Of a stretch of DNA of 21,538 bases, positions 13,966 through 16,400 are shown in pieces (the first letter of the stretch is position 1; every line of letters begins with the position of its first letter). The notes under the pieces were generated by a model. That model was given only the letters and a program-made list of their open reading frames with translations, made no database searches and had not been told where the DNA came from. The DNA comes from an uncultured Gammaproteobacteria bacterium (lineage in GTDB: Bacteria; Patescibacteriota; Patescibacteriia; SG8-24), in the NCBI GenBank assembly GCA_964486995.1, contig CAZAOV010000019.1, positions 1 to 21,538 of the forward strand, written 5' to 3'. The position numbers and the translations under genes were made by a program.

Positions 13966-13985
13966 CCCGTCACTTCGTGGGCAAC
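13966..13985 (+). repeat. 20-bp exact direct repeat, copy 1 (CCCGTCACTTCGTGGGCAAC)
   Basis: Identical 20-mers occur at 13966-13985 and 16201-16220 in the same orientation. They bracket the methyltransferase, rSAM and precursor genes. The core contains CACnnnGTG. Confidence 0.8.
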
Positions 13986-14208
13986 AGGCGGTCAACGCTT
14001 TGGTGTTGCGGCTGGGGGAGTGATGGGTGAATGGCGTGTCGCGCCGCCAGTACCAGCCGATAATATGGACATCTGGCGAATTATATGCTAAGGTCGTACA
14101 ACAAATTTATACGCGAAACCTATCGAAAGTCAGAATCAACAACCGAATCCAGCCCAGAAGTGGGACTCTCTATATTCTAAGGGGGCGGCCTACAAGCCGT
14201 TCAATTTT

Positions 14209-14730
14209 TTGTTGCTCAAGAAGGTTCTGAAACGAGTCGAGGAATTGGCGGGGGCGGAACCAGGGTCTGCGCTCGACCTGGGGTGCGGCACCGGCGAGAC
14301 ACTCGCCAAACTGAAAAGTGTTGGCATCGAAGACGTGGCCGGCATCGACTGCTCGGAGGTGGCACTCGACGAGGCCAGAAAACAGCTTCCGGACGAAAGC
14401 TTGCACTGCTGTGATCTCAACGATGCGGTATTTCCTGCTGAACGGCAGTTCGATCTGATAATCTGCAAGCTGACTGTGGCGTTCGTTGCGGACAAGGAGT
14501 CGTTTCTCAATAAGGTCTCTGCCCTCATGCACGAGAAGTCCGTGCTCTGCATCATTACACCCGTGTTGCACGAGTCGCTCGAATACACAAAGGAAGACAA
14601 GCCTGGTATCGCGGTGAAGTACCCGGAGTTCAAGGCTTTGCTGGAAAGCAGATTCGGGAACGTCGAGGAGTTGCATCACGACTATACTGGCGAACGGGGT
14701 GACCTCGTGACATTCCTCGCCATTAAATAG
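14209..14730 (+). CDS. Class I SAM-dependent methyltransferase
   Basis: Motif I ALDLGCGTGE. A downstream acidic motif (IDCSEVALDEA) and the hydrophobic post-I strands follow the MTase fold. The N-terminus is unusually short, with motif I only about 20 aa from a TTG start and no close SD. It is convergent with the rSAM gene and they share a terminator. Confidence 0.6.
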   Translation: MLLKKVLKRVEELAGAEPGSALDLGCGTGETLAKLKSVGIEDVAGIDCSEVALDEARKQLPDESLHCCDLNDAVFPAERQFDLIICKLTVAFVADKESFLNKVSALMHEKSVLCIITPVLHESLEYTKEDKPGIAVKYPEFKALLESRFGNVEELHHDYTGERGDLVTFLAIK

Positions 14731-14740
14731 CGAAACAAAA

Positions 14741-14770
14741 AAAGACGGCTCGCAAAGGGGTCGTCTTTTG
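14741..14770. terminator. Bidirectional terminator between convergent methyltransferase and rSAM genes
   Basis: AAAGACG-gctcgcaaagggg-tCGTCTTTT. Confidence 0.55.
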
Positions 14771-14775
14771 GTTTG

Positions 14776-15813
14776 TCATTTCCAGCACTGCGGGTCTGCC
14801 GCCTCCCACCTGCCGTTGGTCGAGTGCGTCACCGCCATGCAGCCCCGGCAATAGTTTAGAAGTTCGCAGTCGCGGCACTTCTCCAGCCGGTCGAAATCGC
14901 GGTAGCGGTCGAGTTTCTCTCCGAAAAAGATGTCGTAGAGGCTCTGCTCGGGCACCTTGCCGACCGGACTCTTGAAGCGTCGGCAAGCGTAGGCGGTGCC
15001 GTCTGCAAGGAGTGTCATGTGTGCGTTGGCTGCGCCGCAGCCGCTCACGACCACTCCGCCGGTGTCCTCCGGCGCGAAAAGTCCGCGCTCGTAGAGAAAC
15101 AGGGTCCAGAGATGGTCCTTGAGGACGAACTCGGTTGTCGCATTCTCGTGCTTGGCGTAACAGCCCCAGACCGTACCGAGAAAATCGCGGTACTCCTCGG
15201 GTGTGAAGCTGGAGCTCGCGTCGCCATCGCCCGGGCAGTGCCGCGCGAAACCGAACACTCGCGCGCCCATGCCGACCACATGATCGATGAGCTTGGGAAT
15301 GTCTGCCGCGTTTTCCTTCGAGACGGTGGACATAATGCCTACGCCCACGCCGTTGCGCTGCAGCGTGTCGCATGCCTCGCCGGTCGCACGGAACGAGCCG
15401 CGCTTCCTGAAGCGGTCATGCGTCTTCTCCATGCCGTCCAGCGACAGCTGGAATTTTCGCACACCGAGCTCGTAGAGTCGTTGCGCCACTTCGTCGGTGA
15501 TGCCGAACGGATTTCCGAGCAGGCTTACCGGCACATCGTTCTTGCGCAGATGCGCGAGCATGTCCCAGAATCTGGGATGCAGAAGCGGATTGCCACCGGT
15601 GAGCGATACGCGCGGAATCGCGCCTAGGCGCTTGCAGGTTTGAACATAGTCGTTGGCGATCGCGGTGAGGGTGCCGTAGCCCATGCGTCGCTCGCCCTCG
15701 ATTTCCCGCTTCGCGTCCGGCGACGTGTACAGGTAGCAGTGTCGGCACCGCTGCTCACAGCTGGTCGTCAGGTGCCACTGAAGGGACAAGACTGGTTTGT
15801 TGCTTTCGTTCAT
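14776..15813 (-). CDS. Radical SAM enzyme with a C-terminal SPASM/twitch-type auxiliary cluster domain (peptide-modifying maturase)
   Basis: Canonical CxxxCxxC (TTSCEQRCRHC) near the N-terminus. GGNPLL is a glycine-rich SAM-binding motif. The C-terminal Cys-rich block CGAANAHMTLLADGTAYACRRF...CRDCELLNYCRGC is typical of SPASM domains. ATG at 15813..15811. Confidence 0.85.
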   Translation of the reverse strand: MNESNKPVLSLQWHLTTSCEQRCRHCYLYTSPDAKREIEGERRMGYGTLTAIANDYVQTCKRLGAIPRVSLTGGNPLLHPRFWDMLAHLRKNDVPVSLLGNPFGITDEVAQRLYELGVRKFQLSLDGMEKTHDRFRKRGSFRATGEACDTLQRNGVGVGIMSTVSKENAADIPKLIDHVVGMGARVFGFARHCPGDGDASSSFTPEEYRDFLGTVWGCYAKHENATTEFVLKDHLWTLFLYERGLFAPEDTGGVVVSGCGAANAHMTLLADGTAYACRRFKSPVGKVPEQSLYDIFFGEKLDRYRDFDRLEKCRDCELLNYCRGCMAVTHSTNGRWEAADPQCWK

Positions 15814-15818
15814 CGTCT

Positions 15819-15839
15819 GCCTCTCTGAAAAAAAGAGGC
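15819..15839 (-). promoter_or_regulatory. Intercistronic stem-loop between the precursor and maturase genes
   Basis: GCCTCT-(9-nt loop)-AGAGGC ending 5 nt before the rSAM ATG. Its 3' arm overlaps the GAGG of the putative SD. There is no trailing U-run, so it is more likely an attenuator or processing site than a terminator. Confidence 0.4.
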
Positions 15840-15886
15840 GGAGCCAAGTGCGCTACGCCTCAATAAGATGCATGGCATGCAGTGCC

Positions 15887-16069
15887 TTAGTCCCAGTTGG
15901 AACACCCCGTGCAGGAGCAGGGGTCGTTGTTGCAGTCGCTGGACTCAAAGCCTTCTCCGGACTTCATTTCTCGCGCCTGCTTCGCCGTCCGGGGCGCGGC
16001 CCTTCCGACCTGTTCCTCGCGTTTCCGCCAACGGTTGAACCGCTCGCGCATCGCGTTCTTTTCCTTCAT
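15887..16069 (-). CDS. Putative RiPP precursor peptide (60 aa) with a Cys-rich C-terminal core
   Basis: AGGAGACGGAG ATG. The translation is MKEKNAMRERFNRWRKREEQVGRAAPRTAKQAREMKSGEGFESSDCNNDPCSCTGCSNWD, a basic helical leader followed by an acidic, Cys-rich core with four Cys in the last 15 residues. It lies immediately upstream of and co-directional with the rSAM/SPASM gene. The 97-aa ORF in the track is trimmed to the SD-supported ATG. Confidence 0.6.
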   Translation of the reverse strand: MKEKNAMRERFNRWRKREEQVGRAAPRTAKQAREMKSGEGFESSDCNNDPCSCTGCSNWD

Positions 16070-16200
16070 CTCCGTCTCCTTTCTGTTCGCGGTTGAAGGA
16101 ACAAAGTGAAGATGCAACACGTCATATTTACAGCAGGTTGTCAAGGCTGTCGGTACTAAAAACGTTGTGCACGCTGCCATTGATTAACCTGTTTCCGCAT

Positions 16201-16220
16201 CCCGTCACTTCGTGGGCAAC
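16201..16220 (+). repeat. 20-bp exact direct repeat, copy 2 (CCCGTCACTTCGTGGGCAAC)
   Basis: Identical to 13966-13985. It lies about 130 bp upstream of the precursor gene on the minus strand and about 100 bp from the 3' end of tRNA-Val. Confidence 0.8.
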
Positions 16221-16323
16221 CAGTGATCAATACTCCAGAACAGAAACAAATTGCAGAGGTAAGTGGTTTGCCTCTTTTGCGCTTAACCAACCAAAAAACC
16301 GGCCTTCCAGCCGATTCTTTGCA

Positions 16324-16400
16324 TGGTGGGCGGCAGAGGAGTCGAACCTCTGACCTCTGCAATGTCAATGCAACGCTCTAACCAACTGAGCTAGCCGCCC
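16324..16400 (-). tRNA. tRNA-Val (anticodon GAC), CCA encoded
   Basis: Reverse complement: GGGCGGC-TA-GCTC-AGTTGGTTA-GAGC-G-TTGCA-TTGACAT-TGCAG-AGGTC-AGAGG-TTCGACT-CCTCT-GCCGCCC-A-CCA. The 7-bp acceptor stem is perfect. The D and T stems are 4 and 5 bp, the T-loop reads TTCGA, and U33/A37 flank the GAC anticodon. Confidence 0.9.

Follow-up and report, generated by a model that had tools for sequence, protein, structure and literature searches.

A 20-nt direct repeat around a RiPP cassette at tRNA-Val(GAC) as a probable relic of integrase-proximal attachment arms in a patescibacterial contig

The stretch of DNA analysed here (the window; 21,538 nucleotides [nt], contig CAZAOV010000019.1 of assembly GCA_964486995.1, from an uncultured bacterium placed in the Patescibacteriota) carries exactly two copies of the 20-mer CCCGTCACTTCGTGGGCAAC, both on the forward strand, which bracket genes for an S-adenosylmethionine (SAM)-dependent methyltransferase, a radical SAM/SPASM maturase (rSAM) and the precursor of a ribosomally synthesized and post-translationally modified peptide (RiPP), next to tRNA-Val(GAC) (Table 1). 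The two copies are probably what is left of integrase-proximal attachment arms that decayed at a hotspot of integration into tRNA-Val; the RiPP cassette would be the cargo of the island. The 20-mer would be the most conserved block of such an arm, which would consist of the last ~60 codons in the frame of a tyrosine integrase specific for tRNA-Val(GAC); these codons would lie past the catalytic domain, cross a terminator supplied by the element and continue on the antisense strand of the tRNA 3' end. The feature adds a new case to a known class of structure, decayed genomic islands at tRNA genes, and the host (a member of the candidate phyla radiation, CPR), the RiPP cargo and the unusually conserved 20-mer lend it modest added interest. 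A striking repeat would thereby be explained as the scar of a familiar process, tRNA integration followed by integrase loss and island accretion, and repeats of this kind should be taken with caution before they are called attachment (att) cores or operators.

The original prediction, made from the letters of the window, had described an exact direct repeat of 20 bp with copies 2.2 kb apart that enclose the methyltransferase, rSAM and precursor genes, had placed the second copy about 100 bp from tRNA-Val(GAC) and had judged a chance origin very unlikely, and in all of these points it was borne out. Copy 2 lies 103 nt from the tRNA gene, no additional match to the 20-mer was found in the window when up to 3 mismatches were allowed, and 0 of 100 dinucleotide shuffles of the window contained any 20-mer match. 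By our arithmetic, chance would give ~2e-4 exact 20-mer pairs in a sequence as long as the window, and the repeat is therefore real. Aligned without gaps, the similarity of the two copies extends to ~30 nt (26/30), with 15 of the next 22 nt of the right flanks identical (~68%), while alignment of ±100 nt and shuffle-calibrated local alignments revealed no convincing similarity between the copies outside the ~30 nt on either side. Within the 20-mer there is a small, 3-bp dyad (CAC/GTG, as CACnnnGTG).

Integrase-tail ancestry of both repeat copies

By its best protein matches, the window derives from a patescibacterial genome of the Uhrbacteria kind. To recover orthologous tRNA-Val loci of relatives, we used the conserved DHH-family gene next to the tRNA. 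In L008, the closest relative as judged by the DHH protein (73% identity), an intact 406-residue open reading frame (ORF) for a tyrosine integrase (PF00589 plus a SAM-like N-terminal domain) lies directly beside tRNA-Val, and the same arrangement is found in L004 (DHH protein 69% identical), where the integrase is followed by an HTH_17 excisionase-like gene. Both integrase ORFs run through the terminator and end inside the antisense strand of tRNA-Val. At the nucleotide level, window positions 16213-16449 match the L008 integrase tail, the tRNA and the tRNA promoter region with 86% identity over 237 nt (blastn). Read in the integrase frame, the window encodes GQPVINTPEQKQIAEVSGLPLLRLTNQKTGLPADSLHGGRQRSRTSDLCNVNATL followed by a stop, which is 85% identical to residues 352-406 of the L008 integrase (tblastn, E 2e-22), and positions 16202-16378 match residues 345-405 of the L004 integrase with 61% identity (tblastn, E 2e-14). 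The remnant thus shares its frame with the last 55-59 residues of the integrases of L008 and L004, reads antisense through the tRNA to a stop at 16379-16381 and, in its part outside the tRNA, occupies positions up to 16323, abutting the 3' end of tRNA-Val(GAC) at 16324. From TGGGCAAC, the right 8 nt of the repeat, with which homology to the intact integrases begins, the distance to the tRNA 3' end is 103 nt in the window and in L008 alike. On the basis of these matches and of the identical 103-nt spacing, copy 2 is the start of a recognisable integrase 3'-end remnant.

An integrase body is absent from the window: in tblastn searches the integrases of L004 and L008 recover only the last ~59 codons (~40 plus the tRNA overlap), and no recombinase Pfam domain was detected in the 21.5 kb, adjacent to the tRNA or elsewhere. 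The search for an integrase or recombinase on the contig that the original prediction had proposed thus turned up nothing beyond the C-terminal remnant.

Copy 1 continues differently. Whereas copy 2 leads into TGGGCAACCAGTGATCAATACT, copy 1 leads into TGGGCAACAGGCGGTCAACGCT, which matches the L004 and L008 integrase tails at 21 of 22 positions (blastn), and the 19-mer TGGGCAACAGGCGGTCAAC of this remnant is found exactly (19/19) in L004. Since their continuations differ, the two copies are not simple duplicates of each other, and by its sequence copy 1 is a putative second remnant, from a different integrase than copy 2. Outside 13966-13999 no integrase homology was found further left or right of copy 1. 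The catalytic domain that Pfam defines in the intact integrases stops near residue 330 of 405 and the position of the 20-mer corresponds to about residue 345, which places the 20-mer in a non-catalytic tail that serves also as the attachment arm by the core.

No intact integrase with the peptide encoded by the 20-mer (PSLRGQ) emerged from a word-indexed search, an exhaustive phmmer search returned only the L008 integrase cluster and low-complexity noise, and the integrase relatives matched in IMG/VR were only 24-26% identical and uninformative.

Several features of the integrase ORFs themselves deserve mention. In both L004 (14231-15448, minus strand) and L008 (2502-3722, minus strand), no stop occurs until well inside antisense tRNA-Val, so that ~75 residues follow the catalytic domain in a tail that covers the terminator and the att core; the source record of L004 does not call the gene. 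The integrase tail of the window also holds an inverted, degenerate copy of the tRNA-Val 3' half (16250-16303 against 16310-16363; 54-nt arms, 72% complementary, symmetric about the terminator) that is conserved in L004 and L008, and a clearer inverted tRNA 3' fragment lies downstream of the tRNA in two relatives that have no integrase (L016, L017). This inverted copy may belong to the architecture of an att site, stem from an old integration in inverted orientation or form a structure in RNA.

The tRNA-Val locus as an integration hotspot

Exact-match scans for the 20-mer covered representative genomes of 185,579 species, JGI metagenome records and IMG/VR viral contigs. The genome scan revealed one related locus, in a metagenome-assembled genome of Candidatus Uhrbacteria (L001, DHH protein ~50% identical), where the 20-mer is present in a single copy per genome. 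There, the 20-mer lies inside an insert of ~1 kb that is bounded by a direct repeat of ~58 nt, made up of the final 28 nt of tRNA-Val and the terminator that follows, so that the distal boundary of the insert is recognisable, and degenerate integrase-tail sequence is found 3' of the 20-mer. The duplication in L001 shows that the tRNA 3' end, and not the 20-mer, is the true core for crossover at this site. A metagenome match (L002) falls within the coding region of an unrelated high-GC contig and is attributed to chance, and the IMG/VR viral contigs contained no exact 20-mer. In L001 the right end of the 20-mer is also tandemly duplicated (1862-1880, GTGGGCAAC CC GTGGGCAAC), and (G)YCAAC-like units (GCGTCAAC, CGCCGCAAC) are found 5' of the 20-mer, in a cluster of periodic repeats of 7-12 nt.

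In the relatives without an integrase at tRNA-Val (L005-7, L009-12, L016 and L017), only the terminator hairpin follows the tRNA; neither an integrase tail from TGGGCAAC on nor a 20-mer within 5 mismatches was found in them. The original prediction had proposed to look for an empty site with a single repeat copy, but the unoccupied relatives carry none, and the copy in L001 lies inside an island. The interval from tRNA-Val to a conserved RNA-ligase gene holds different genes in each relative (L005-7, L009, L012, L016), and in L017 the tRNA directly adjoins the RNA-ligase gene. Synteny is thus broken at the tRNA, as is typical of a tRNA-targeted element, with unoccupied sites among the relatives, and the differing content in every relative identifies the tRNA-Val site as a hypervariable insertion hotspot. 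Such a hotspot in Uhrbacteria-like genomes should be useful for tracing gene flow in reduced, uncultured bacteria. These comparisons partly support the att-like insertion that had been proposed beside the tRNA, an interpretation right in spirit and wrong in mechanism: tRNA-Val is an integration hotspot and the repeats are DNA of the integration module, but the 20-mer is neither an att core nor a target duplication, because empty sites have no copy of it, the real core is the tRNA 3' end and the 20-mer lies 103 nt from that core.

Two integrase-tail remnants that differ from each other lie in the window at a distance of 2.2 kb and in the same orientation, with no core between them. The decay of mobile elements to integrase-less forms and their accretion at the same tRNA site have been reviewed for integrative and conjugative, integrative and mobilizable, and cis-mobilizable elements (ICEs, IMEs and CIMEs; PMC5704250), and tandem islands at ssrA have been described in Dehalococcoides (PMC3146451). 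On the basis that the pattern in the window fits this established scheme, we infer a history of three steps, including their order and the origin of the two copies in separate integrations. First, elements of the family would integrate at the tRNA-Val 3' end, with int beside the tRNA. Second, a tRNA-adjacent element with the methyltransferase, rSAM and precursor genes as cargo would have lost its integrase body and its other genes by deletion, after which copy 2 and 103 nt of arm would have stayed joined to the tRNA. Third, copy 1 would be the arm remnant of a different, earlier element of the family, displaced outward by the later integration (tandem accretion, then decay).

Islands and prophages that target tRNA genes and carry a tyrosine integrase by the tRNA include those with P4-like and lambda-type heterobivalent integrases. 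The elements at tRNA-Val resemble them in their integration at the tRNA 3' end, in the integrase gene that abuts the tRNA, in the HTH_17 excisionase-like gene after the integrase, in the re-supply of the tRNA 3' end by the element, with a displaced 3' fragment as direct repeat (seen in L001), and in their variable cargo. The window differs in that its integrase is down to the last ~40 codons plus the tRNA overlap and that no distal repeat of the tRNA fragment is detectable; the Patescibacteria (CPR) host and the unusually long post-catalytic tail (~75 residues) through the terminator into the tRNA are further differences. With CIMEs and tandem accretion, as in ICESt1/ICESt3 of Streptococcus thermophilus (PMC5704250) and the Dehalococcoides ssrA islands (PMC3146451), the window would share an array of decayed islands with adaptive cargo, in which repeated integration-module sequences mark former boundaries. 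By contrast, a CIME by definition keeps both attL and attR, whereas only the tRNA-proximal site is intact here, and the repeated sequence in the window is an arm or integrase-tail segment rather than a core.

Conservation of the 20-mer and competing explanations

The three remnants (copy 1, copy 2 and L001), which derive from at least two integrase lineages and two organisms, agree at 20 of 20 positions, versus ~68% in the adjoining tail of the window copies. Such exact three-way identity with diverging flanks is not predicted by plain neutral decay and hints at a functional recombination site. Our preferred inference is that the exact conservation reflects a role at the DNA level in recombination, most plausibly as a candidate arm-type binding site of the integrase. 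The 20-mer runs on into GGKCAAC units in tandem, spaced by 11 nt, at 103 nt from the core, and the adjoining 19-mer is conserved at 18 of 19 positions between the L004 and L008 integrase genes, which are 60% identical in DNA overall. Lambda-like attP sites carry arm-type integrase binding sites on their P and P' arms. The putative sites described here would resemble these as short, directly repeated motifs ~100 nt from the core that are more conserved than the surrounding arm, and in the apparent helical phasing of the tandem units (GGKCAAC, 11 nt apart). They differ in that the integrase N-terminus gave no match to a Pfam arm-binding domain and in that the putative site is known here from its sequence pattern on the integrase-proximal arm, the L004 and L008 contigs each stopping within the intact element. 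The exact conservation across genomes makes the 20-mer a candidate site for how these integrases recognise attachment arms. As a side effect, the repeat could allow rare homologous deletion of the cassette.

Several observations weigh against the derivation of the repeats from two decayed arms. First, recognisable integrase-tail homology of copy 1 is limited to ~22-34 nt. Second, the left 12 nt of the repeat (CCCGTCACTTCG) are common to the three remnants and absent from the intact integrases, and no intact integrase containing the exact 20-mer was found in the collections searched. Third, all three remnants lose clear integrase homology at about one point, and three independent deletions with one endpoint are not expected under plain decay. 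Fourth, no displaced tRNA-Val 3' core was found in the window, either at up to 6 mismatches or by local alignment; a distal direct repeat of the tRNA 3' end is accordingly missing, so that the outer limit of the island and a second round of integration are presumptive. Finally, other 19-mer blocks in the integrase gene are as conserved as the one that adjoins the 20-mer, and the arm-type proposal rests on a sequence pattern.

With regard to the left part of the repeat, the intact integrases have a stretch resembling CCCGTCACTTCG 13-17 nt further upstream (L004 GCTCACTTCG, L008 CGGTCAGTCC), and the 20-mer looks like an integrase linker with a frameshifting deletion. Local alignment gave no significant match of the left flanks to the integrase or to one another; of the remnants, copy 2 alone continues weakly in register with L004 (19/45, p ~0.008). 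Two places were considered for the displaced core. A segment ~114 nt left of copy 1, where the core should lie by the geometry of L001, scored no better than random windows. Positions 9101-9117 (TTTGCATGTTGGGCGGC) match the tRNA-Val 3' junction (TTTGCATGGTGGGCGGC) at 16 of 17 positions in the same orientation but lie inside an ORF (8832-9317), and with E ~0.2 the match is probably due to chance; it is the sole candidate for a distal att fragment in the window.

The nearest homologous cassette, in L003, has the same gene order as in the window and an rSAM 75% identical. At a distance of 3 kb are an integrase N-terminus and a gene of the HTH_17 excisionase-like type, and on the same 1.5-Mb contig the DHH/tRNA-Val locus of that genome is ~1 Mb away from the cassette. 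In L023 and L024 all three cassette genes are placed between housekeeping genes. None of these cassettes contains a sequence within 5 mismatches of the 20-mer, and DNA homology between L003 and the window spans only 14122-16099, ending 137 nt and 102 nt inside the repeats. The original prediction had named related genomes with the same genes and no flanking repeats as evidence against it; these three contigs carry such cassettes. The presence of the cassette without the 20-mer, together with homology that ends short of the repeats, argues both against an operator role of the repeat and against a conserved, repeat-bounded mobile unit. In light of its int and xis neighbours at another locus in L003 and its housekeeping neighbours in L023, the cassette is best described as apparent mobile cargo of integrative elements, independent of the repeat, and a conserved precursor/rSAM/methyltransferase cassette of Patescibacteria would thus travel in this manner.

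A competing explanation holds that the 20-mer is itself the crossover site: an integrase-less circle of ~2.2 kb, carrying the cassette and one 20-mer, would have recombined into the 20-mer of an integrase-tail remnant by tRNA-Val to give repeat-cassette-repeat. This main rival, in effect the original att model shifted from the tRNA to the integrase tail, would account for the exactness over 20 nt with a sharp drop on both sides (15/22 on the right, unrelated sequence on the left), the classic look of an attL/attR core, and for the exact 20-mer in L001 with a DHH protein only ~50% identical, as expected of a functional site. Moreover, the single copy in L001 could be an unoccupied or exchanged site, and an integrase acting in trans would make one inside the segment unnecessary. 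Nevertheless, we consider this scenario rather unlikely: no empty-site allele, second genome with two copies or circular form was found in the collections scanned, the cassettes in L003, L023 and L024 lack the 20-mer and, in L003, homology ends well inside the repeats, the 3-bp dyad is poor for a tyrosine-recombinase core and the 21.5-kb contig encodes no recombinase. A related and equally tentative idea is that the 20-mer might be a functional site, of arm type or for secondary crossover, that defines integrase-less mini-islands in Patescibacteria, moved in trans by helper integrases specific for tRNA-Val. If so, mini-islands would keep only the 20-mer and the arm, and would carry small cargo, for instance a RiPP cassette of 2 kb, from one ultra-small genome to another.

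Alternatively, the repeat could be a neutral relic devoid of function, its 20 identical bases being due to chance conservation or to gene conversion over a short patch of the paralogous remnants. That both copies are homologous relics is clear, and paralogous sequences that lie close together are known to undergo conversion over short tracts in bacteria. At a tail identity of ~68% (15/22), by contrast, we estimate 20 straight matches at ~4e-4 per position, and the same 20 nt occur in L001, a different organism to which intragenomic conversion cannot apply; we therefore regard this possibility as improbable.

A shared cis-regulatory site that controls two outward-facing promoters had been offered as an alternative in the original prediction, and it was not supported. 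As an operator that co-regulates the promoters of the methyltransferase and of the precursor/rSAM unit, the 20-mer would be suitably placed, since both copies fall in intergenic DNA 5' of the two transcription units, one at 137-224 nt from the methyltransferase and the other at 129 nt from the precursor ATG, it contains the small dyad CACnnnGTG and two TrmB-family regulators are encoded nearby. However, the genes are convergent on a shared terminator (14740-14769), so that the promoters face inward and a direct repeat is oppositely oriented relative to the two of them. In addition, homologous cassettes with the same gene order occur in three contigs without the site within 5 mismatches, and the conserved cassette, with homology limits at 14122 and 16099, does not reach as far as the site. 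No cassette of this kind is found near the third copy, in L001, and integrase-tail ancestry accounts for the 20-mer without regulation. Taken together, an operator role appears very unlikely.

Least credible of all is a generic interspersed family, of the repetitive extragenic palindrome (REP) or miniature inverted-repeat transposable element (MITE) kind. The source genome is seen in one 21.5-kb contig, which leaves room for further copies elsewhere in it, but the scans yielded one related locus among 185,579 species, one chance metagenome match and none in IMG/VR, the L001 genome has a single copy, and the flanking inverted repeats or hairpin typical of REP and MITE sequences are absent. Occurrence of the 20-mer at many unrelated loci, which would have spoken against the original prediction, was thus not seen in the public collections. 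We retain the derivation from decayed integrase-proximal arms as the best explanation.

The enclosed cassette and neighbouring features

Table 1. Coordinates of the repeat, the integrase-tail remnants, the tRNA and the enclosed genes in the window
Feature	Position	Strand	Evidence
Repeat copy 1 (CCCGTCACTTCGTGGGCAAC)	13966-13985	+	exact match
Putative integrase-tail remnant 1 (20-mer plus AGGCGGTCAACGCT)	13966-13999	+	blastn, motif scan
SAM-dependent methyltransferase, class I	14122-14730 (canonical ORF 14209-14730)	+	Pfam, homology boundary, N-terminal alignment
Hairpin terminator common to the convergent methyltransferase and rSAM genes	14740-14769		
Radical SAM/SPASM maturase, closest to ACGX-system family TIGR04340	14776-15813	-	profile matches
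Cys-rich precursor peptide, 61 residues, C-terminus ...DCNNDPCSCTGCSNWD, conserved in L003 and L023	15887-16072	-	
Repeat copy 2 (CCCGTCACTTCGTGGGCAAC)	16201-16220	+	exact match
Integrase-tail remnant 2 (integrase-proximal attachment arm)	16201-16323	+	tblastn, blastn
tRNA-Val(GAC), integration target	16324-16400	-	Rfam
tRNA-Val 3' 28 nt, inferred att core (displaced duplicate fragment in L001)	16324-16351	-	

The rSAM matches TIGR04340 over its full length with 382.5 bits (E 2e-114), below the family cutoff of 400, and the precursor, which matched no Pfam or NCBIfam model, has a single CTGC motif and no ACGX repeats. The cassette is thus similar to ACGX-system RiPP cassettes (TIGR04340) in the full-length rSAM match and the small Cys-rich precursor partner, and differs from them in the rSAM score under the cutoff, in the precursor without ACGX repeats and in the convergent methyltransferase as a conserved third gene. 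SbtM (TIGR04082), a thio(seleno)oxazole maturase, is a related system; a literature search for ACGX together with radical SAM found nothing. The precursor family has the C-terminal pattern FNxWRK...APRT...DC(Q/N)xDPCxCTGCSxWD (window 15887-16072, minus strand; L003 3734-3916; L023 9738-9920) and is in every case paired with an ACGX-like rSAM and a convergent methyltransferase. Judged by this pattern and pairing, it may represent an undescribed RiPP class in Patescibacteria.

The methyltransferase frame is open for 39 codons 5' of the TTG at 14209 (14092-14208), in a stretch conserved in homologues that includes the motif AQKWDSLYSKGAAYKP and contains no ATG, GTG or TTG. The start Met of the homologue aligns with the ATC at 14122, and the TTG at 14209 is the first canonical start, suggesting either a non-canonical start codon or an N-terminal truncation.

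The enclosed DNA had also been described as visibly GC-richer than its surroundings. This difference is real (0.575 between the repeats vs 0.523 outside) and carried by the rSAM and precursor genes (0.61-0.62), but it is modest and not unique, in that a gene for a vault-protein-like product elsewhere in the window reaches 0.596.

Two minor candidates were dismissed. A 40-residue minus-strand ORF that starts inside copy 1 (13844-13966) is not conserved in L001 and is not considered a gene, and a minus-strand sigma-70-like sequence (TTGAYC-N17-TGACGG) has a poor -10 element and was not matched by a promoter scan. An Rfam scan of the window returned the tRNA only. To the left of copy 1 lies a non-coding stretch of 290 nt (13673-13965), without homology to any compared locus, which is densely set with hairpins: two at 13687-13707 and 13729-13746, one with a stem of 17 bp (13750-13788) and, on the minus strand at ~13808-13838, a stem that resembles a terminator.

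On the far side of the tRNA, a repeat of 69 nt occurs three times at 17926-18213, between the DHH and the vault-protein-like genes, with identities of 100%, 90% and 61% and with the copies spaced by 98 and 121 nt; it has no Rfam match. The latter gene (18588-21221, plus strand) encodes a protein of 877 residues with Major Vault Protein shoulder and repeat domains (PF11978, PF17795), which is unusual for Patescibacteria, and it sits where most relatives have valyl-tRNA synthetase beside the DHH gene.

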